The position numbers and the translations under genes are program-made. DNA of 7,999 bases from the IMG/VR virus record IMGVR_UViG_2684622669_000018, positions 1 through 7,999 of that record; one strand, 5' to 3'. Below are positions 1-7,999 of the stretch, piece by piece (the first letter of the stretch is position 1; every line of letters starts with the position of its first letter). A model generated the notes under the pieces. That model was not told the DNA's origin and ran no database searches. It saw nothing but the letters and a program-made list of their open reading frames with translations. This DNA comes from a virus. Lineage: Duplodnaviria; Heunggongvirae; Uroviricota; Caudoviricetes.

Positions 1-1074
1 TCATTTGTTGATTTCAATTTTGTCCCATTCTCTCCCTCGGCTGTCCCTATACCGCGCCGCCATTGAATCTGATTTATGCCCGAGAAGACGTTGAGCAAAC
101 TTATCGCCAATCTGATTCCGGTATAGCCTCGCCGACAGGCTACGCAGTTCATGGAATGTTGGCGGGTCTCCATCAAATGAGAGTCCAGATGCATTTCTCG
201 CCTTTGTAAAATACTTAGATACTGTTTTCGGGGAAAGCGGTTCGTGATGCGTTGATGCAATTATTGTTTCACTGCCGCTGGTCTCCCTGCATTTCTGTAG
301 TGTATCAGCCAATGAAATATTGAGCGCGTCAATCGTTAGCGTCAGCGGAATGGCGAGCTTAGCCCCTGTTTTACCCTGTTCAATGTGAAGATGGTTGTCG
401 TTTATGTCTGACCATTTCATTTTGCACAAATCGCCGACTCTCTGACCTGTAACGACGGCCAAATCCATCGCAAGCCTCAGCCAGATTGGGAGAGGTTCGG
501 CTGCATGGTGAATTGCGACATACTCATTAGCTGTCAGCCTTGAGCGCCTTACTTCTGACTTTGCTGTGCGGGTTGCTGTTACCGGATTCGTAGCCACATG
601 CCCCTCGGCTATTGCCTCACGAAAAACGTCAACAAGGGTTGACCTGATTAATTTTGCGGAAGCCGCTTTACCTTCTGCTACGTAGGTGTTTAGCATTGCT
701 GCCACCTCTTTCGTTGATATGTCTGCGAGCGGTTTGTCCGGCAATTTTCTTCGGATTGCCCTGATTTTGCTGGCGTAGTCGAGTAGAGTTTTCGGCCTGA
801 TACCCCTCTCGCTGAGGATTGTTTCATATCGGTCAAGCCACGCATGAAGAGTGATTGCGTCAGCGCCTTTAATTCTGTCTATCAGTGACTCACGCCTGTT
901 CCCGGATAGCAACTCAATATTGGCCTGTATAGCTTCAGTGATTGCTATACGTCTGTCTCGGCCTAATCCGAACTCTTTACCCGTCCTTGGGTCCCTGTAG
1001 CAGTAATATCCATTGTTTCTTATATAAAGATTAGGGGGTAAATCCCGGCGCTCATGACTTCGCCTTCTTCCCAT
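1..1074 (-). CDS. int: Tyrosine integrase, lambda Int-like (357 aa, complete)
   Basis: ATG at 1074..1072, TGA at 3..1. N-terminus MGRRRSHERRDLPPNLYIRNNGYYCYRDPRTGKEFGLGRDRRIAITEAIQANIEL matches lambda Int as I recall it; C-terminal HELRSLSARLY ... LLGHKSD ... RY fits the tyrosine-recombinase catalytic signature. The 5' end overlaps the xis 3' end by 23 nt, as in lambda. Confidence 0.95.
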   Translation of the reverse strand: MGRRRSHERRDLPPNLYIRNNGYYCYRDPRTGKEFGLGRDRRIAITEAIQANIELLSGNRRESLIDRIKGADAITLHAWLDRYETILSERGIRPKTLLDYASKIRAIRRKLPDKPLADISTKEVAAMLNTYVAEGKAASAKLIRSTLVDVFREAIAEGHVATNPVTATRTAKSEVRRSRLTANEYVAIHHAAEPLPIWLRLAMDLAVVTGQRVGDLCKMKWSDINDNHLHIEQGKTGAKLAIPLTLTIDALNISLADTLQKCRETSGSETIIASTHHEPLSPKTVSKYFTKARNASGLSFDGDPPTFHELRSLSARLYRNQIGDKFAQRLLGHKSDSMAARYRDSRGREWDKIEINK

Positions 1075-1270
1075 TTCTGATCCTCTTCAAAAGGCTACCT
1101 GTTACTGGTCGATTTAAGTCAACCTTTACCGCTGATTCGTGGAACAGATACTCTCTTCCATCCTTAACCGGAGGAGGGAATATCCTGCACTCGCGTACCC
1201 ATCGACGAACTGTTTCAAGGCTTCTTGGGCGTCGCTGGCGTGCGTTCCACTCCTGAAGTGTCAAGTACAT
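1052..1270 (-). CDS. xis: Excisionase, lambda Xis-like (72 aa)
   Basis: ATG at 1270..1268, TGA at 1054..1052. MYLTLQEWNARQRRPRSLETVRRWVRECRIFPPPVKDGREYLFHESAVKVDLNRPVTG is near-identical to lambda Xis as recalled; the gene sits directly upstream of and overlapping int. Confidence 0.92.
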   Translation of the reverse strand: MYLTLQEWNARQRRPRSLETVRRWVRECRIFPPPVKDGREYLFHESAVKVDLNRPVTGSLLKRIRNGKKAKS

Positions 1271-1294
1271 CGCAAAGTCTCCGCAATTACACGC

Positions 1295-1317
1295 AAGAAA
1301 AGCCGCATTGATGCGGC
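1295..1317 (-). terminator. Candidate intrinsic terminator or attenuator between the 114-aa gene and xis
   Basis: Plus strand gccgca-ttga-tgcggc (1302..1317) forms a 6-bp GC-rich stem with a 4-nt loop. On the minus-strand transcript it is followed by UUUUCUU (plus 1295..1301). A second weaker hairpin, gcctca/tgaggc, lies at 1352..1370. Confidence 0.3.
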
Positions 1318-1375
1318 AATGGTAGGTCTGGATATCTTGAGAAATGAACAGGCCTCATTGAGTGTGAGGCTGTGG

Positions 1376-1720
1376 TTAGTCCTTGCGTAGCTCGCTAATT
1401 CTTCTGTAAGTCTCTGGTGCTTTGTTTCCGTGTATCTTCATTTCAGACTTCAACAGAGCGACGAGGGAATCCCATTCGTTGAGGATGCCTTTGAATGCCG
1501 GAACGCGCTTTGCAACCTTGTCGAATGAATCTCTGATTTCTGGAATCTGCTCAACAAGTGCAACGCATCGCCGGAAGTCTGCTGCGTCATGTGGAGCGCC
1601 GAAGTGATGACCATAGATATTCTTTTTCAGTCCACATGCGATTGAGGCAAGAGTTGCGCTACTGATGCCAACATCGCCAGTCGATTGCCATTTCAAAACC
1701 TTCATAGCCAAATCTGACAT
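1376..1720 (-). CDS. Hypothetical protein (114 aa), function unknown
   Basis: ATG at 1720..1718 preceded by GGAGA with 6-nt spacing; TAA at 1378..1376. It lies in the lambda ea8.5/ea22 position next to xis, but I recognise no family. Confidence 0.6.
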   Translation of the reverse strand: MSDLAMKVLKWQSTGDVGISSATLASIACGLKKNIYGHHFGAPHDAADFRRCVALVEQIPEIRDSFDKVAKRVPAFKGILNEWDSLVALLKSEMKIHGNKAPETYRRISELRKD

Positions 1721-1758
1721 TTCTTGTCTCCATAAAACAAAACCCGCCGTAGCGAGTT

Positions 1759-1791
1759 CAGATAAAAGAAATCCCCGCGAGTGCGAGGATT
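1759..1791 (-). terminator. Candidate internal intrinsic terminator or attenuator
   Basis: Imperfect hairpin aaatccccgcgagtgcgaggatt (1769..1791; about 9 bp with one mismatch and one G-U). On the minus-strand transcript it is followed by a U-rich tract (plus cagataaaagaa, 1759..1770). It lies between the 98-aa and 114-aa genes. Confidence 0.25.
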
Positions 1792-1838
1792 GTTATTCAT
1801 TGCCGATATTCACCTTTATCGCGAACACCTTTACCGGT

Positions 1839-2135
1839 TTATCTCCTTTGCATGGCGCGTAATTTTTTCAGATGGTTCTCCTGCTCTGTTTCAGCCAGAA
1901 TTTGTCGGTATTCCTGGTGATCGATCCGTTCAAACAGTTCATTAAAATCGTTTATTTTTACCGACTGTGTTCGCCCATCCATTCTTCTGTACAACACAGT
2001 GTTGTTTATGCAGCGAAGAATTTTTATCGGGTAGCCGGCGCTATCGGTGTATATCTGACCACGTTGAATCAGAGCGAACATTCCTTTATCCCCAGCGGAA
2101 AAGCGAATACAGAATAAATGCCACCGCGATTGCAA
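1839..2135 (-). CDS. Hypothetical protein (98 aa from TTG, or 80 aa from ATG at 2081)
   Basis: The ORF-track start at 2135..2133 is TTG, immediately abutting AGGAG (0-nt spacer). The first in-frame ATG is at 2081..2079 with a weak AAAGGA directly adjacent. TAA at 1841..1839. Start uncertain; no family recognised. Confidence 0.45.
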   Translation of the reverse strand: MQSRWHLFCIRFSAGDKGMFALIQRGQIYTDSAGYPIKILRCINNTVLYRRMDGRTQSVKINDFNELFERIDHQEYRQILAETEQENHLKKLRAMQRR

Positions 2136-2155
2136 CTCCTACAGCGGTGAATGCT

Positions 2156-2818
2156 TCAGGCCAATTCATCATTCACTCCCTGCGGCGGTTCTGGTAGCAG
2201 CATCCAGTACAAGGCGTTCCCTAACCACGATAAAGTGCCGTCGCTCAACTCCACGTATTCCCCTTGTACCTGTCCTGCCATATACTCGCCGTGCTTTGAA
2301 TAAATTAAAACCCAATCGTCTTGAGCGGGAATTCGCTCACTACAGCTTATCCAACCATCCGGAGTTACCGGAGAGTTGCCACCGGGAATATTTTCCGGAA
2401 TATTTTGTTGTGCGTTTTGTGGTTGTTCGGATTTACCCTGAAGCATGGCGGCGCGGCAGGCGTTCCAGCCAGCTGTTCGCCCAAGCGCGTAAACTTCAGA
2501 TGGATCAAGATAATCAATGTCATGCCCGTCCTCATCGTCGTTCTCAGGTAATGCAGCAGGTACTACTGGTACTGGAGGGGCGGCATAAACAGGAATAACG
2601 TCCGATTGATCTTTATTGCTTTCATCCGTCAAAGCCCAGAATAATTTTCCGGCCGGATGTTTGAAAATATAAGCAACTGGCTCTGCTTCCAGTGATGCCA
2701 GTGCAATTCGTGCCAGTTCTTCCGCTTCTTCTGCTGGCAGTACAACGTTGCTACCAGGTCCGTATGTTTCGCGCCACTGCTTGATTGTCAGCAGTCGCTC
2801 TTTGGTAATAGTGGTCAT
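2156..2818 (-). CDS. DUF551 domain-containing phage protein (220 aa)
   Basis: ATG at 2818..2816 preceded by AGGAA with 7-nt spacing; TGA at 2158..2156. The C-terminus PDGWISCSERIP...WVLIY...LSWLGNALYWMLLPEPP fits the DUF551 pattern common in lambdoid early regions. The central region is Pro/Asp/Glu-rich and looks like a low-complexity linker. Its ATG overlaps the upstream gene's TGA (ATGA at 2818..2815). Confidence 0.8.
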   Translation of the reverse strand: MTTITKERLLTIKQWRETYGPGSNVVLPAEEAEELARIALASLEAEPVAYIFKHPAGKLFWALTDESNKDQSDVIPVYAAPPVPVVPAALPENDDEDGHDIDYLDPSEVYALGRTAGWNACRAAMLQGKSEQPQNAQQNIPENIPGGNSPVTPDGWISCSERIPAQDDWVLIYSKHGEYMAGQVQGEYVELSDGTLSWLGNALYWMLLPEPPQGVNDELA

Positions 2819-3330
2819 GCCGCGTTTCCTTCTTTCTTATTAACAATTACACCGTCATATATTTCATTAAGGTGCCCTCTCAACTCCATGCGCCTTAATG
2901 CAGATAACATGTAATCGCATTCAACCTGCTTATTTCCAGTAAATGGCTTATCGTCAGGATTACCCCAACAGCAATTACCCTTGGGCCACCCATGCACTTT
3001 CCGTACTCTTCCGTTAACAACGTGAAGTAATCCCCAGCCAGGTGGTAAATCCTCAACTGAAATAATTCCCGGCTCACTAATAAAGAATCGCCAGTCGCCC
3101 ATTCCAAGAGATGGATTTTTACGAAAACGCTTTTTTCTATCTGCCAACAAGTCAGCACGAGAACACTTCGCCTCTATCAGGCATGATGCTGAATTTCTGA
3201 ATCCCATAGCATCTGGCTGTTCTCCGGTACTGGTTACAGCTATAAAGCGGTCATGAAAACAAACCTTGAACCCGTTGCGCTTAAGGAACTTATACGCAAT
3301 CTGACAGAGTTCGCGGTGTGTTAACGCCAT
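2815..3330 (-). CDS. Putative PD-(D/E)xK-motif nuclease-like protein (171 aa; possibly MmcB-like), Cys-rich C-terminus
   Basis: The ORF-track ORF 2815..3492 is a 5' over-extension that overlaps the Ea22-like gene. The internal ATG at 3330..3328 is preceded by AGGAGAG with 4-nt spacing and lies 1 nt after the Ea22-like TGA (3334..3332). The motif GEQPDAMGF...SCLIEAKCSRADLL resembles the PD...ExK nuclease signature; the C-terminus carries a GNCCWGNPDD...ECD cysteine cluster. Confidence 0.6.
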   Translation of the reverse strand: MALTHRELCQIAYKFLKRNGFKVCFHDRFIAVTSTGEQPDAMGFRNSASCLIEAKCSRADLLADRKKRFRKNPSLGMGDWRFFISEPGIISVEDLPPGWGLLHVVNGRVRKVHGWPKGNCCWGNPDDKPFTGNKQVECDYMLSALRRMELRGHLNEIYDGVIVNKKEGNAA

Positions 3331-3331
3331 A

Positions 3332-3991
3332 TCACTCTCCTTTGATGCGAATGTCAGCGGCGCGCTCGGCTTCACTTTGTTCCCAAAACCACTTGTGAAG
3401 CTCCATGAGCTTTTCGTCAATCGGTGCATATTTGCGATTAAAGTAGGCCTGAGCATCTTTCTCAGATTCGTCCGGCAATTCGCCTGGGCCAAACAGTGTG
3501 TTATAAATCCATGCCAGTCCGCTTTTAGCGTCGCCAGTTGCCTGCCATTCGATAATCGCAGCCTGCATGACCAGAATGTTTTTCCCGATTAACAGGTCCA
3601 GCTCTTTGAACCGGTTGCGGATGTATGCATTCTCGCTTTGTAATTTTGCGTTGCGCTTCTCTGCGGCTTCCAGCTCAACACGCAGCTTCCCTACAGTTAG
3701 CGCAATTTCCTCGTTCTCCTGATCGCGGCGTTTTATGTATTGCTGGTTTCTTTCCCGTTCATCCAGCAGTGCCTGCACTACTTCAGGGTTGAAAGCTGCG
3801 ATATAACGAGCATTAGCAGCAGCTTTTTTCTGTCCATCAAACCCAGGCCATTTGATAACATCTTCGCATCGTTTATCACCTGGCGTATGCACCGCATACG
3901 TACCAGTACCCGGCGAAATAAATGCGACCCATTCGCCCTGTGTTGCCTGTTTTGCTAACTCACGCAGTGCCTGATAGTCAATCTTGCTCAC
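3332..3991 (-). CDS. Ead/Ea22-like family phage protein (219 aa from GTG start)
   Basis: The ORF-track start at 4183 is a GTG with no SD, inside the Lar-like gene. GTG at 3991..3989 is preceded by AAGGAGG with 6-nt spacing. The N-terminal domain (IDYQALRELAKQATQGEWVAF...ARYIAAFNPEVVQALLDERE) and the coiled-coil middle resemble the Ead/Ea22 family as recalled. TGA at 3334..3332. Confidence 0.65.
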   Translation of the reverse strand: MSKIDYQALRELAKQATQGEWVAFISPGTGTYAVHTPGDKRCEDVIKWPGFDGQKKAAANARYIAAFNPEVVQALLDERERNQQYIKRRDQENEEIALTVGKLRVELEAAEKRNAKLQSENAYIRNRFKELDLLIGKNILVMQAAIIEWQATGDAKSGLAWIYNTLFGPGELPDESEKDAQAYFNRKYAPIDEKLMELHKWFWEQSEAERAADIRIKGE

Positions 3992-4211
3992 TGTTTGCCT
4001 CCTTTGCTCGCTGATTCCACTCTGCTCTAACCTCTGAATAAAAAATCGCGCAGTCATTTCCAGGCGCTGCATATTTGCTACCAGATTGAGCGCGACACGT
4101 ACCGCATCGAACGAAATAGAATCGACCGCCAGAGCCATATTCAGGGTGATCTGCTTCGCTGGCAACGTGCGCTGCACCGCCACAGAATGGACATGGTAGT
4201 AGGTTGCTCAT
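3978..4211 (-). CDS. lar: Lar-family restriction-alleviation protein (zinc ribbon, 77 aa)
   Basis: ATG at 4211..4209 preceded by GGGAG; TGA at 3980..3978. Protein [12 protein letters not shown]...RCGTC carries the CPFCG plus CxxC four-cysteine ribbon typical of Lar/RalR-like proteins. The start overlaps the stop of the 186-aa gene as ATGA (4211..4208). The longer ORF-track version (from 4244) is an in-frame 5' extension. Confidence 0.75.
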   Translation of the reverse strand: MSNLLPCPFCGGAAHVASEADHPEYGSGGRFYFVRCGTCRAQSGSKYAAPGNDCAIFYSEVRAEWNQRAKEANSEQD

Positions 4212-4768
4212 GAATGCACTCCCTTGTGAAGCTGTTCCGCACAATGCAGCAGGGCGTCAGTCGCCTCTTTCACCGTAACGCAGTCGCCATCGTCCAGCCC
4301 GGACACCGACGCGTGCTTAACGAACGCCGCGTAAAGGTCATCAAACGCCTTAGCCCGGACTTCAGCCAGGAAAGCATCGGTGGCTGGGGTGTCTGATTGC
4401 ATAGACTTTGCGCGATAATCATTCCACCCTCTTGCATATATGGGATTAACTTGCACCCCATCTTTTACGCAATATGCCTGCCCTCCACGGTTGATAACCT
4501 TGATTTCGTCCATAGCGCCAGACTTCAGCCCCGCATTCTCCGCCGCCAGCGCCGAAAACTTCTCGTGTGCCAACTTAACAGCCGCATCAGCCTGCTTAAT
4601 TGACTCAATCGCTTTCTGGTGGTCTTCGGACAGAGCCGAAATCTTGGCCTCCGCTTCAGCAAATTTACGCACCAGATATTCAGCGTTTGTTTCGTTAACC
4701 TTTAAATCTCGTGGGATGCATTGACCTTTCAGAAAACCATCCATCTCAATTAGTGACATTTGTTTCAT
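4208..4768 (-). CDS. Hypothetical protein (186 aa), predicted coiled-coil N-terminal half
   Basis: ATG at 4768..4766 (GGAG about 9 nt upstream); TGA at 4210..4208. The N-terminal half is Ala/Glu/Lys-rich and heptad-like. No family recognised. Translationally coupled to the Lar-like gene. Confidence 0.65.
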
Positions 4769-4945
4769 TTCTTCCCACTCCGCAACATCGCATTCAGATA
4801 TTTGTTTTGATTCACTGATGGAAAAGAATTTCTCTTAAGCAATTCCTCTCTCGATGGCATTGGCTTTACGCGTTAGAGAATAATCATTTCTGCCGGAAGA
4901 ATGCCGGGATTGTATGCAAGTCCTCTCATGGTAAATTCCTCTTTG

Positions 4946-5260
4946 TTAATTTATTCGTATGCCTGCTCTTTCTTCATCGAGTTTTTTTAGCTTGTATCGC
5001 ATAGCTCTTACTGAATAAATTGAGCGGCAGGTTGCAATTGCTATTTCTTCCGCGGTGAACTTACCGAAAAGTGATACTTCGGCTCTTGTCCATCGTCTTC
5101 CACGAAGTCGGCTAACAATGTCAGCGCCAATCCTTGTTGCTTTCGCCATAACTGCTTTTTCAGTCCTTTCCAGTTTTTCAGCGATAACTTCAACTGGCAT
5201 TGTCGCCGCTACTTCGCGCAAGAAATCGACTTCCCATTTCTCCCATGGAGTCTTTTTCAT
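4946..5260 (-). CDS. Hypothetical protein with two Myb/SANT-like repeats (104 aa); possible DNA-binding protein
   Basis: ATG at 5260..5258, 11 nt after the Gp157 TAA, with no clear SD (probable coupling). Internal duplication: WEKWEVDFLREV...EVIAEKLERTEKAV and WTRAEVSLFGKFTAEEIAIATCRSIYSVRAM. TAA at 4948..4946. Confidence 0.55.
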   Translation of the reverse strand: MKKTPWEKWEVDFLREVAATMPVEVIAEKLERTEKAVMAKATRIGADIVSRLRGRRWTRAEVSLFGKFTAEEIAIATCRSIYSVRAMRYKLKKLDEERAGIRIN

Positions 5261-5271
5261 AGGCGATACCG

Positions 5272-5754
5272 TTATTTGATAAGAAGTGAAGGTTTCCCAA
5301 CTTTGAGTTGAGCGCCGGGGATATTTATTCCTGCTTTTAGTTGGTGTTTGATTGCCAACTTGTCGGCTTTAATTGTTGTTTCAAACTCAACGTATTCAGG
5401 AGGAAGGGCGCTTGAGTCGATGATTTCTACAGTTTCTGACGGTTTGCGGATTGTTACCTGGTGAATACCTGCTCGCATCTTTTTCTTGCCAACCATTTCA
5501 AGCGATGACGCTATATATGATTTGATGCTGTCAATCTTATTTTGAATTACTGCGGCTCGTTCATTCAGTGACTTTGCCTCTTCCTTGAGGCGTTCAGCAT
5601 AACCAGATTCATTTTTAATAATGGCGAGAAGTTGCTCTATTTTATCGGTAAATTCTCCTTCCATGCCTTCTATTGTGTCAGCAATCATCTCTGGTTCTAA
5701 ATCTGAATCCATCAATTTTGCGTATTCATTGGCTATTTCATATAGTTTGCTCAC
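5272..5754 (-). CDS. Siphovirus Gp157-family protein (about 160 aa)
   Basis: (V)SKLYEIANEYAKLMD...IADTIEGMEGEF...EMVGKKKMRAGIHQVTIRK...VEIIDSSALPPEY fits the Gp157 family usually found beside phage annealing proteins. The ORF-track start is TTG at 5760; GTG at 5754 has GGAGG 6 nt upstream and is preferred. The 5' end overlaps the recT 3' end. TAA at 5274..5272. Confidence 0.8.
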   Translation of the reverse strand: MSKLYEIANEYAKLMDSDLEPEMIADTIEGMEGEFTDKIEQLLAIIKNESGYAERLKEEAKSLNERAAVIQNKIDSIKSYIASSLEMVGKKKMRAGIHQVTIRKPSETVEIIDSSALPPEYVEFETTIKADKLAIKHQLKAGINIPGAQLKVGKPSLLIK

Positions 5755-6649
5755 TGGCAACCTCCAGTTTCGCTTTGCATTCCATGTAAATGGCTTGTAC
5801 GTTCTGCTGCAATTTCATTCCAGATGTCAGGCGATATGCTTCTGCAAAATATCGCTTCAAATCATCCATGTTTTCAGCCTGAGCCATTTCATCACAAAGA
5901 AGTTGTGCTTTTTCCATAATTTCCTGCTGTCGTTTCCGTTCATCTTCGCGGATATCTTCCTCTGATTTGTGCGGCATAACTGGTTCAGTCCACACACCTT
6001 CTTCTTCGTTTAGTACGTGAATAGCACTATCAAGACGTGATGCCTTAGGCCAATACTTGCTTGCACGCTTTACGACCGTCTTTCGCGCCATCTCATTCCA
6101 GTGATTTACCCATGGTCCTTTATCGCTGAATGCTGCCTTGCTTGTTTTCCTTACAGCCTCAATTTCAGCCAGACTCATCTCTTCCGTTAGATAATCACCT
6201 GCTGGCGTCTTAACTGTGCAGTAAACGCCAACAATATCACCACGATCACCGAAGGCGTTGTATTTATGGGTTGGTGCTTTATCAAGCCCGTTTGACTCAT
6301 AGGTATCGTTAGCATGAACAAGTTTTGCCTGACCCCATGAGATAACACCAGACTCCATTGCAATATGGAGCAATCCCATATAACTGATATCAAGGCACAC
6401 CATGCCGTCGCGCGGAACCAGATAAGCCAGTTTGCTAGCCGGGTTTAAGGTGATACCGATCGCCGCAACATTGATGATGGCGTTCTGTGCGCTGGTTGGA
6501 TTTGCCAGTGCTGTTTTAGCCAGGTAATCATTTTTCTGGAAATACTGAATTGCAAACTGGCTTTCCTTAGCCCATGTCACCGTCTGTTCAGTCAATGCTC
6601 CGCAGAATAACTGCTCTTGCTGTTTAACGAATTCAACGATATTGCTCAT
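5738..6649 (-). CDS. recT: RecT-family single-strand annealing protein (303 aa)
   Basis: ATG at 6649..6647 preceded by GGAG with 7-nt spacing; TGA at 5740..5738. The conserved block GPWVNHWNEMARKTVVKRASKYWP matches the RecT/Redbeta-superfamily core as recalled from Rac RecT (GPWVTHWEEMAKKT...). The start overlaps the stop of the upstream 103-aa gene as ATGA. Confidence 0.88.
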   Translation of the reverse strand: MSNIVEFVKQQEQLFCGALTEQTVTWAKESQFAIQYFQKNDYLAKTALANPTSAQNAIINVAAIGITLNPASKLAYLVPRDGMVCLDISYMGLLHIAMESGVISWGQAKLVHANDTYESNGLDKAPTHKYNAFGDRGDIVGVYCTVKTPAGDYLTEEMSLAEIEAVRKTSKAAFSDKGPWVNHWNEMARKTVVKRASKYWPKASRLDSAIHVLNEEEGVWTEPVMPHKSEEDIREDERKRQQEIMEKAQLLCDEMAQAENMDDLKRYFAEAYRLTSGMKLQQNVQAIYMECKAKLEVASEQTI

Positions 6650-6957
6650 GCTGCTTCTCCATAAACGTGTCTGCGTTTGAATATTGCGAAGGCATATTCA
6701 GCCTTAACTCTTTCGGTTATTGCATCCCAGAACCATTCAGCGGCTTTTTCCTGATAGTTACAGTCATAATCTTCCAGCCAGTCGATAGCTTCCTTAGTGT
6801 GTTCATCTGGTTTATATGAGCGAAGCATTTCGCTTATTGGGTCGCAACGTTTGCAGAGGCGATCAACTTCACTGTTGATTCGTTCGTAATCTTCATCAGT
6901 AAAACTTGCGATTATTTGCGATATTTCACGCTCATCTTTCAGAGTCAGAATCATCAT
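6646..6957 (-). CDS. Hypothetical acidic protein (103 aa)
   Basis: ATGATG at 6957..6952 preceded by AGGAG; TGA at 6648..6646. About 24 Asp/Glu against about 15 Lys/Arg; two CxxC-like spacings (C..C at RLCKRC). It occupies the position of lambda gam, immediately upstream of the annealing protein. Confidence 0.6.
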   Translation of the reverse strand: MMILTLKDEREISQIIASFTDEDYERINSEVDRLCKRCDPISEMLRSYKPDEHTKEAIDWLEDYDCNYQEKAAEWFWDAITERVKAEYAFAIFKRRHVYGEAA

Positions 6958-7042
6958 CTTTCTCCTGTTCTTTGTGCTGATTGAGCATTTCTTTCATCTG
7001 ACGAATAAATTCTTCGTCTGACCAGTTATCTGTAAAACTCAT
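6932..7042 (-). CDS. Possible small ORF (36 aa, acidic C-terminus); speculative
   Basis: ATG at 7042..7040 overlaps the kil-like TGA (7041..7039) as ATGA. Translates to MSFTDNWSDEEFIRQMKEMLNQHKEQEKDDDSDSER. The SD is weak (AGGAA abutting the ATG). It overlaps the first 26 nt of the 103-aa gene. Not in the ORF track because of its size. Confidence 0.25.
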   Translation of the reverse strand: MSFTDNWSDEEFIRQMKEMLNQHKEQEKDDDSDSER

Positions 7043-7191
7043 TTCCTGCGATACCACGGAAGGTTGATAGCTGATTTCATCGCTTTATTTGCTTCAAGCC
7101 ACATTTTTGAATCACCAATAAATCTGGCTATTACTGCTTTGTTCTGTGCTGCACGAAGCATCTGGTGATTGATGGCTATTTCATTGCGCAT
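7039..7191 (-). CDS. kil: Kil-like host-killing / FtsZ-inhibitor small protein (50 aa)
   Basis: ATG at 7191..7189 preceded by GGAGG with 4-nt spacing. Translates to MRNEIAINHQMLRAAQNKAVIARFIGDSKMWLEANKAMKSAINLPWYRRK. The FIGD-x-KM core and its position overlapping the cIII 3' end by 16 nt mirror lambda kil as recalled. Missed by the ORF track (under 60 aa). Confidence 0.5.
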   Translation of the reverse strand: MRNEIAINHQMLRAAQNKAVIARFIGDSKMWLEANKAMKSAINLPWYRRK

Positions 7192-7310
7192 AACGCCTCC
7201 AGTTGTTTCTTTGCTGCTCTGATTAATTGTTTAACTCGGCGTGATAATTCAGATTCGTGCGGGTAGAAAGCGGACATGACGCCGCTACCCGCGAGCTGAA
7301 AGTGCATCAT
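7176..7310 (-). CDS. cIII: CIII-like small protein (44 aa), putative FtsH inhibitor
   Basis: ATGATG at 7310..7305 preceded by AAGGAG with 6-nt spacing; TAG at 7178..7176. MMHFQLAGSGVMSAFYPHESELSRRVKQLIRAAKKQLEAL resembles lambda CIII (M..AIAG....PSESLLERITRKL...) as recalled, and lies immediately upstream of kil. The ORF-track ORF 7176..7415 is a 5' over-extension. Confidence 0.5.
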   Translation of the reverse strand: MMHFQLAGSGVMSAFYPHESELSRRVKQLIRAAKKQLEALCAMK

Positions 7311-7372
7311 GGGTAACTCCTTATATTTGATTGCATAACGAAAACGCCTCGAGTGAAGCGTTATTGGTATGC

Positions 7373-7400
7373 ATATAAAAAAGCCCTCACACTGGAGGGC
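7373..7400 (-). terminator. Intrinsic terminator (tL1-like position, upstream of cIII)
   Basis: On the minus-strand transcript: GCCCUC-cagugu-GAGGGC (plus 7383..7400) followed directly by UUUUUUAUAU (plus 7373..7382). Perfect 6-bp stem. Confidence 0.5.
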
Positions 7401-7462
7401 AAAGAAGATTTCCAATAATCAGAACAAGTCGGCTCCTGTTTAGTTACGAGCGACATTGCTCC

Positions 7463-7490
7463 GTGTATTCACTCGTTGGAATGAATACAC
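7463..7490. repeat. Perfect 9-bp inverted repeat with 10-nt spacer
   Basis: gtgtattca (7463..7471) and tgaatacac (7482..7490) are exact reverse complements, with spacer ctcgttggaa. No U-run follows on either strand, so this is not a terminator. Candidate protein-binding site or RNA stem-loop. Confidence 0.4.
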
Positions 7491-7517
7491 AGTGCAGTGT
7501 TTATTCTGTTGTTTGTG

Positions 7518-7545
7518 CTAAAAATAAAGGCCGACTATGCGGCCT
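7518..7545 (-). terminator. Intrinsic terminator immediately after the membrane-protein gene
   Basis: Plus strand aggccg-actatg-cggcct (7528..7545) begins 5 nt after the TGA at 7552..7550. On the minus-strand transcript the hairpin is followed by UUAUUUUUAG (plus 7518..7527). Confidence 0.5.
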
Positions 7546-7549
7546 AAAA

Positions 7550-7999
7550 TCACTTAACCAATGATGCTGCATATTCGATAAGGTAAAGCTTTGGAGCCAG
7601 CCAAATTTTCAACCAAGTCATATTGGTTACTGCACTAATAATAAAAATCCCCCACAGAATCAAAACTCCAACCAATGGAATGATAAGAAGATTAATATCA
7701 CCTTTGCTATCCCAAACCATTGTCGGCCTGTATTTGGGATTTCCCTTCTCCCATGAATATCCTTCATCACCGATTTTACCTGTCTCAACTCTTTGGCACT
7801 GCTTCTTCATAAACCAGAAAACCAGTGGGATTGTTAGAATGGCTATTAATGTTTTAATCAGACTGTCAACCATATTCCATATTAGCAACTGATGAACAAC
7901 ATCAGGAATCTGTGCCTGGCTAAATGAAACAGCCGCGTCTATTCCATCACTGGCTTTTTGCAGTAGTTCTACGAGAATCTTGTTTGCTTGTTCTTCCAT
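7550..7999 (-). CDS. Small membrane protein with two predicted TM helices (149 aa or longer; N-terminus may lie beyond the window); candidate superinfection-exclusion or moron product
   Basis: The ORF runs to the window edge; the ATG at 7999..7997 may or may not be the true start. Hydrophobic segments LIKTLIAILTIPLVFWFM and LLIIPLVGVLILWGIFIISAV. Visibly AT-rich compared with the rest of the window. Followed by its own terminator. Confidence 0.65.
   Translation of the reverse strand: MEEQANKILVELLQKASDGIDAAVSFSQAQIPDVVHQLLIWNMVDSLIKTLIAILTIPLVFWFMKKQCQRVETGKIGDEGYSWEKGNPKYRPTMVWDSKGDINLLIIPLVGVLILWGIFIISAVTNMTWLKIWLAPKLYLIEYAASLVK

Follow-up and report, generated by a model that had tools for sequence, protein, structure and literature searches.

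Two groups of described proteins stand closest to the gene treated here: the DNA repair protein MmcB and, more distantly, the archaeal Holliday-junction resolvases. The structure 3dnx (SPO1766 of Silicibacter pomeroyi) was placed under DUF1052/PF06319, in the PD-(D/E)XK class (PMC3424549), and DUF1052 was tied to the archaeal Holliday-junction resolvases, with a described AD...E(V/I/C)K motif (PMC1189080). In Caulobacter, MmcB confers protection from mitomycin C and cisplatin, and a crosslink-repair pathway with translesion polymerases is where it has been hypothesised to work (reviewed in PMC9578287); it is a chromosomal, SOS-regulated gene, found mostly in Alphaproteobacteria (PMC3424549, PMC9578287). 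The subject of this report is a prophage gene for a protein of 171 amino acids (aa), located on the minus strand at 2815..3330 of a stretch of 7,999 nucleotides (positions 1 to 7,999 of the Caudoviricetes record IMGVR_UViG_2684622669_000018); this whole stretch is called the window below. Its product is very probably a small enzyme that cuts DNA, has the restriction-endonuclease fold and is related to MmcB, the cutting activity being predicted. As to its role, we consider it probable that the product is a single-domain, metal-dependent PD-(D/E)xK endonuclease of the MmcB (DUF1052)/archaeal Holliday-junction resolvase branch, acting on intermediates of replication, recombination or repair. Both the fold class and the affinity to MmcB are known concepts that had been noticed earlier for some relatives: one was given the remark "spo1766 structure" by those who annotated Vibrio phage Her, and another received the label "DNA repair protein" from a pipeline.

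A preliminary description, made from the letters of the window, had recognised in the product a PD...E-A-K arrangement typical of restriction-endonuclease-fold nucleases and had named a structure prediction among the ways to check it. We obtained an AlphaFold2 model, built on 43 relatives, with a predicted local distance difference test score (pLDDT) of 89.8 and a predicted template modelling score of 0.83. Its elements run in the order helix 5-18, strands 23-26, 41-45 and 48-54, helix 58-64, strand 80-85, a β-hairpin at 100-113 and C-terminal helices. As modelled, this is the αβββαβ core of the PD-(D/E)xK nucleases. The model also puts the proposed catalytic residues where this class carries them, with an acidic residue at β2 and a (D/E)-x-K motif in β3, and both are conserved in homologues far beyond chance. 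The fold and the triad of that description are supported. The relevant parts of the domain are as follows.

3166..3216, minus strand: catalytic core, from P39-D40 (3216..3211, start of β2) to E53-A54-K55 (3174..3166, β3), placed by model strands and conservation
3250..3252, minus strand: D27 at the end of β1, a candidate extra metal ligand
3121..3162, minus strand: signature S57-R58-x-D60-[FL]61-x-x-D64-x-x-K67-x-F69-R70 in helix α2, following E-x-K; partly common to MmcB, and alignable to 3dnx and MmcB
2890..2922, minus strand: C-terminal helix with the conserved E137 and R146-R147 (model helix 134-150, pLDDT at least 90), in the same domain and not a separate tail

D27 is invariant in 43 close relatives, and most family members, like the consensus, have Glu at the equivalent position.

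The family to which the protein belongs is large. A profile search of 1.84 billion representatives returned 3,276 clusters (50% identity) at E <= 1e-3, and 2,469 at E <= 1e-10. Conservation was read from an alignment of the 147 best representatives (50% identity or less); the denominators vary from residue to residue. At least 97% of the representatives keep D40, E53, K55, D60, D64, K67, R70, G78 and R81, and a second alignment agrees. Counts for the individual residues are given here.

E37: kept in 142/144 representatives
P39: kept in 135/144
D40: kept in 143/144
E53: kept in 145/146
K55: kept in 145/146
D60: kept in 146/146
D64: kept in 146/147
K67: kept in 146/147
R70: kept in 146/146
G78: kept in 147/147
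R81: kept in 146/147
W99: kept in 139/143
E137: kept in 133/139
R146: kept in 118/142
R147: kept in 124/142

Kinship with MmcB emerges at the level of the family. Using sequence only, the broad family profile found 3dnx in the PDB at E = 1.2e-5, and hhalign of the family against the bona fide full-length MmcB of S. meliloti gave 86.5% probability and E = 4.6e-6. The match to 3dnx is significant only with the broad profile; a narrow profile of close relatives gave a non-significant E = 0.48, and a single-protein phmmer search of the PDB yielded noise alone. Structurally, the protein is equivalent to 3dnx across the whole domain. Moreover, alignments to 3dnx and to S. meliloti MmcB reveal a shared signature, AD...E-[VIC]-K-[ST]-S-x-x-D-F-x-x-D-x-K, and when phage, acidobacterial and true MmcB proteins are aligned together, D40, E53, K55, D60, D64, R81, P96, G100 and L101 are invariant. 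Among the structure matches in BFVD are phage proteins that carry the name "MmcB family" or "MmcB-like" DNA repair protein. The existing Pfam models touch some relatives: PF06319 does so for 14 of 148 at E < 0.01 (best 6.5e-5), and the Hjc model PF01870 weakly matches 22 of 148 (best 1.3e-4). The protein itself does not reach the gathering score of PF06319, having no Pfam match even at E <= 1, and has no match to PF01870. The matches to 3dnx and to the MmcB profile indicate that it is an MmcB homologue in a separate, larger sister family that lies outside the Pfam model.

Among the PHROG families, the protein matches phrog_9263 (E = 2.6e-123) and phrog_631 (E = 1.4e-94), both of "unknown function". 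It also matches phrog_5429, "DNA repair protein", weakly (E = 2e-3), and annotation pipelines have passed this repair label to some of its relatives. Rare fusions exist in which the nuclease domain is joined to other domains, as in P0135 (428 aa) and P0227 (243 aa). The partners seen are one N-terminal TniB/DnaC-like AAA+ ATPase, one C-terminal dATP/dGTP pyrophosphohydrolase (MazZ-like) and a few DUF551 domains; as to role, these fusions are mostly uninformative.

The preliminary description had further proposed a Cys-rich tail, with a cysteine cluster that may bind metal.

2917..2973, minus strand: the "cysteine cluster", C120-C121 (2973..2968) plus C138 (2919..2917), not conserved

Cysteines are indeed plentiful, with seven in 171 residues (C9, C24, C50, C56, C120, C121 and C138), and they raise the prospect of a metal-cluster nuclease of the Cas4/AddB kind, in which Cys residues bind Zn or an Fe-S cluster. 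The CC pair and C138 fall in the C-terminal part, as such a reading would have it, and among close relatives from enterobacteria C9 never varies, with C50 and C138 kept in 90% or more. Against it, the CC pair is lost in most of the 59-88%-identical relatives among those listed, for example P0017 (85%), and none of the Cys positions is conserved in the 147 representatives, where a cluster nuclease of the Cas4/AddB/Exo5 type would have four conserved Cys. Across the family the Cys positions are occupied mostly by V, I, T or R. The C9 position is V in 84/134 representatives, that of C50 is I or V in 82/145, and at that of C56 V, T or A predominate; a Cys stands at position 120 in just 15/122, position 121 is mostly G, N or R, and position 138 is mostly R, T or I. 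These positions look like hydrophobic-core or surface positions. The tail itself dissolves on inspection of the model, which gives residues 115-160 as confidently predicted helices (pLDDT 90-97 for 101-150, lower beyond): since they carry the conserved E137 and R146/R147, they are part of the nuclease domain. What is left of the proposal is the seven cysteines; judged by conservation, a metal-cluster nuclease appears already largely refuted, and we give it next to no credence.

The contexts in which homologues occur bear on what the enzyme does. Directly upstream of a DNA primase gene, homologues are found in Kuttervirus rabagast, Klebsiella phage phi1_146041 and the Vibrio Mardecavirus vB_VpS_C2, in the last of these also after two helicase genes; in Vibrio phage K452 the homologue is one small gene upstream of the primase. 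The homologues scanned (rabagast and vB_VpS_C2) belong to phrog_631. The primases, which a Pfam scan did not recognise, are assigned to phrog_47 (E = 1e-23 to 1e-74) and the helicase to phrog_62. Positions of homologues beside a primase, in locus coordinates, are these.

4980-5597 of locus L165: homologue beside primase
3980-4588 of locus L167: homologue beside primase
4863-5480 of locus L166: homologue beside primase
3896-4672 of locus L173: homologue beside primase

In Ackermannviridae and the Vibrio Mardecavirus the primase gene starts right next to the homologue or inside it; the L165 primase is split into two open reading frames (ORFs), and in L173 a small gene lies between. Acinetobacter phage HFM1 carries its homologue between a ResIII helicase gene and a VRR-NUC gene. 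Outside phages, about 45 Acidobacteriota species (Terriglobia/Acidobacteriaceae) have a chromosomal homologue, 35-39% identical, in conserved synteny (loci L037-L081, match at about 6001-6440): upstream is a CHAD/HD (Ppx-GppA domain III) gene, and downstream the homologue meets the convergent recR-ybaB-dnaX genes of the opposite strand. On prophage and viral contigs the neighbours include NinB, RusA, NinG, RdgC, SSB, DnaB, RecA, lambda P, VRR-NUC and DNA methylases. Taken together, the lytic-phage, acidobacterial and prophage contexts favour a part in DNA replication, recombination and repair over one in defence.

Within that frame, two narrower roles deserve mention. In one, the ancestral role of this very large family would be that of a replisome-associated nuclease processing forks, primers or lesions, distinct both from MmcB crosslink repair and from junction resolution. 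Translational coupling to primase in lytic phages and the link to dnaX-ybaB-recR in Acidobacteria would reflect this role, and the lambdoid copy, which lies between exo and xis, would be a mobile version of a replication accessory factor. We put this forward tentatively, as a minority view. In the other, the protein would be a dedicated Holliday-junction resolvase, dimeric and Hjc-like, that resolves the four-way junctions of RecT/Exo recombination before packaging. However, the Stx1 (Shiga toxin 1) phage AU5Stx1, which carries a 99.4%-identical gene, already encodes NinG/Rap, and other resolvase genes adjoin homologues elsewhere. The protein may be purely a Holliday-junction resolvase, but we are rather doubtful of this and think it less likely than the main reading.

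Lambdoid prophages carry the gene in their exo-xis region, where it follows RecT or exo-bet and precedes xis-int; in the window and in AU5Stx1 it stands between the RecT/exo module and xis-int. It is present in 931/5426 complete E. coli genomes and in 642 phage records. In E. coli, 250/1,299 of its locations are on plasmid records of about 93-95 kb, and a genome may hold as many as 6 copies, which hints at phage-plasmids or several lambdoid prophages as the carriers. The gene and its junctions are laid out as follows.

2815..3330, minus strand: nuclease coding sequence (CDS), 171 aa, with ATG at 3330..3328 and stop TGA at 2817..2815
3335..3343, minus strand: Shine-Dalgarno sequence AAAGGAGAG of the nuclease gene, within the last codons of the upstream gene
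3331..3334, minus strand: upstream junction, with the Ea22-like stop TGA at 3334..3332, then one nucleotide (nt), then the ATG at 3330
2815..2818, minus strand: ATGA overlap of the nuclease stop TGA with the downstream start ATG
2156..2818, minus strand: downstream gene, 220 aa, with a C-terminal DUF551 (PF04448, E = 7.5e-9, residues 155-213) and a mosaic body
3332..3991, minus strand: upstream Ea22-like gene (PF13935, E = 2.9e-37), probable start GTG 3991; the ORF list extends it to 4183

The mechanical ORF list gave the nuclease gene as 2815..3492 on the minus strand, with a TTG start and 225 aa. The ATG at 3330 is 162 nt (54 codons) 3' of that TTG, and the 54 codons that the earlier start adds run across the Ea22-like gene in a different frame; on inspection of the sequence, no Shine-Dalgarno or GGAG-like element was seen upstream of TTG 3492. 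The preliminary description had already moved the start from 3492 to 3330 on the strength of this overlap and of the missing Shine-Dalgarno sequence. Its correction is upheld by AAAGGAGAG ahead of ATG 3330, by the 516-bp CDS that RefSeq gives for the gene of AU5Stx1, and by the family alignment, in which a Met aligned to M1 starts 92/147 representatives. The identical 171-aa sequence occurs in at least 1000 public contigs, in every one as "hypothetical protein", and its cluster has 1363 members. Automated gene calls elsewhere produce 185-235-aa versions, which makes the start of this gene a recurrent annotation problem.

Both junctions are well kept. The AAAGGAGAG-type junction (AAAGGAG..TGA.ATG) is found in 79/80 near-identical prophage copies, though the upstream gene bodies differ; in one of the 80 copies the upstream junction reads ..AAATGAGAG... 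At the other end, the ATGA overlap at 2818..2815, which had also been pointed out earlier, is present in the ten commonest junction variants, which make up 71/80 copies. What adjoins the junctions is far from constant. The nuclease genes of prophages with mosaic neighbours are at least 99% identical, and 77 near-identical copies with a complete downstream ORF have 64 distinct downstream proteins, ranging from 75 to 399 aa. An N-terminal segment (the first ~60 residues, MTTITKERLL...) is shared by 65 of these 77 proteins, and only 40 have a DUF551-like end; on the upstream side, an Ea22 core occurs in only 27/78 genes. The conserved ATGA and the N-terminal segment of the downstream gene look like a recombination boundary. 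With neighbours this mosaic, the coupling is a conserved junction and not a fixed partnership: the earlier statement that the gene is coupled to the DUF551 gene is sustained for the junction and falls for the partner. A specific functional partnership with DUF551 was rejected on the same counts.

Co-transcription and coupling with the Ea22-like gene are what a regulatory reading would cite. In this reading, the product has no catalytic activity; it would be an exo-xis protein that binds DNA or regulates and so tips the choice between lysis and lysogeny, an effect reported for Ea22 and orf63. PMC7093339 and PMC3824215 describe effects of other exo-xis genes on lysogenisation and induction. However, acidic and lysine active-site residues that are near-invariant across thousands of clusters are what is expected of an active enzyme, and homologues occur in strictly lytic phages, which have no lysogeny decision to make. 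We consider a silent regulator very unlikely. The publications consulted on the exo-xis region mention neither this gene nor any nuclease.

Three side observations concern the surrounding operon. The Ea22-like ORF is probably over-extended in the ORF list, to judge from its sequence. GTG 3991 has AAGGAGG ahead of it (about 4003..3997) and gives a product of ~219 aa, whose start, VSKIDYQAL, resembles the VSEINSQAL of a related upstream variant; from this start the overlap with the Lar-like gene (stop 3980..3978) is 14 nt, versus 206 nt from 4183. Secondly, residues 172-277 of the Ea22-like ORF (about 3353..3670, minus strand) match the PADLOC "DpdH" model (127 positions) at E = 4.7e-37; they form the protein's variable C-terminal domain, to which no Pfam family extends. 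Finally, two consecutive terminator-like hairpins with T-runs (1740..1791, minus strand) are located just 3' of the DUF4222 gene (1839..2135); they fall within the leftward operon, ahead of a 114-aa ORF, xis and int.

An accessory region of this kind also invites thoughts of conflict. The preliminary description had offered two roles, recombination or action on host or competing-phage DNA, and the second corresponds to an offensive or defensive accessory nuclease that degrades host DNA, excludes superinfecting phages or counters host defence, roles that many of the variable early-left genes have. The exo-xis region is hypervariable, the gene lies near a Lar-like restriction-alleviation gene, its neighbours are extremely mosaic, DNA methyltransferases recur among them (6/127 and 3/150 neighbouring proteins), and the gene is as common in E. 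coli as stated above. The family's wider record fits this poorly. None of the 5027 defence models of PADLOC-DB v2 matched the protein at E <= 1, members of the same family sit in lytic-phage replication modules beside primase and as syntenic chromosomal genes in Acidobacteria, and the family is strongly conserved over a wide phylogenetic distance, unlike fast-evolving defence or counter-defence effectors. Of the two roles offered, the recombination half, extended to replication and repair, is the better supported by contexts and homology. A host-killing or defence role is less likely, and we regard it as improbable.

The methyltransferases suggest one more arrangement, in which the protein would do the cutting and a phage methyltransferase encoded nearby the modifying, the two forming a small restriction-modification pair. 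A DNA methylase gene does lie directly upstream (overlapping or within ~10 nt) in loci L018 and L019 and in Vibrio phage Kuja, and a methyltransferase gene is four genes away in AU5Stx1. Yet the flanking genes in the window are the Ea22-like and DUF551 genes, not methyltransferases, and most loci are without an adjacent methylase. The protein has no separate DNA-recognition domain, and its sequence conservation across phyla is atypical of restriction enzymes, all of which makes such a pair exceedingly improbable. The metal-binding Cys tail, the restriction-modification partner and the defence effector were each rejected on the counts given with them.

We return to the reading we favour, an MmcB-type PD-(D/E)xK endonuclease acting on DNA intermediates. 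Its active site would be built from D40, where β2 starts, and E53-x-K55 of β3, perhaps joined by D27 and E37, and cleavage is predicted to be Mg2+-dependent. Basic residues of helix α2 and the C-terminal helix (R58, K67, R70, R81, R146, R147) would provide the DNA-binding surface. Likely substrates would be branched or damaged DNA arising when phage DNA is replicated, recombined and repaired, for example forks that have stalled or regressed, junctions and flaps. The gene would be expressed as part of the early leftward transcription unit (exo-xis), in which it follows the RecT recombination module, and the stop-1nt-ATG junction and the ATGA overlap would couple its translation to both neighbours.

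Several points weigh against this endonuclease reading. Nuclease activity across the family is a prediction from sequence, and the active-site geometry is deduced from topology and conservation alone. Scans with Pfam and NCBIfam found no model that matches the protein, and the empty PADLOC result counts here as well. Foldseek against the PDB gave nothing at E <= 1e-3, and 3dnx was absent among the 50 matches listed; nearly all of the sub-threshold matches listed are PD-(D/E)xK enzymes (R2 endonuclease domain, AF1548, Bax1, Hjc). The argument from context is associative: primase adjacency was seen in only two or three lineages of phages, the synteny in Acidobacteria could simply have been inherited within the lineage and carry no functional meaning, and the genes beside it in lambdoid prophages (Ea22-like, DUF551, Lar) belong to the mosaic accessory set and not to replication.

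A literature search found no publication on this E. coli/Stx-phage protein, which is unannotated ("hypothetical"). Some family members (MW411580.1, OL615013.1, OP610151.1, OR246918.1) are labelled "adenylosuccinate synthase", or as similar to one; the label is unsupported by sequence or fold and looks like a propagated annotation error. Placement among MmcB/Hjc-like PD-(D/E)xK proteins gives a usable annotation with a corrected start, including for Shiga-toxin phages, and identifies D40, E53 and K55 as the residues to mutate. It also connects an exo-xis gene about which little is understood with the replication and repair of DNA, and not with the control of lysogeny. With a large conserved family, and primase adjacency in unrelated lytic phages, modest biochemistry could assign a function to thousands of proteins.

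The nuclease family is not a new kind of system, and its likenesses and differences can be set out against three known ones. MmcB (PF06319, COG5321) is of equal size, about 150-175 aa, and has in common with the nuclease the D...E-x-K-[ST]-S-x-x-D-F-x-x-D-x-K signature, a D/R-[FL]-F strand and a P-x-x-x-G-L element. Missing in MmcB are several family invariants: G-E37-x-P-D, K-K-x-F-R-x-x-P-x-x-G-M-G-D-x-R-F (with a 5-residue insertion relative to MmcB), G-W-G-L-L, and E137. The habitats differ too, the nuclease family living mainly in phages, prophages and Acidobacteria, whereas MmcB is chromosomal, mostly in Alphaproteobacteria; here the gene is part of a prophage early operon, in contrast to SOS-regulated chromosomal MmcB. 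Hjc/Hje (PF01870; 1hh1, 1gef, 1ob8) is further off, with a structural score against the nuclease far below that of MmcB. The α1 glutamate of Hjc/Hje is not conserved in the nuclease family, which has H5 instead, and the nuclease has an extra β-hairpin and C-terminal helices. Lambda Rap/NinG and RusA, finally, are functional analogues and not homologues. Their genes and those of VRR-NUC proteins share genomes with the nuclease family, sometimes as direct neighbours, and this co-occurrence suggests that the family probably does something that they do not.

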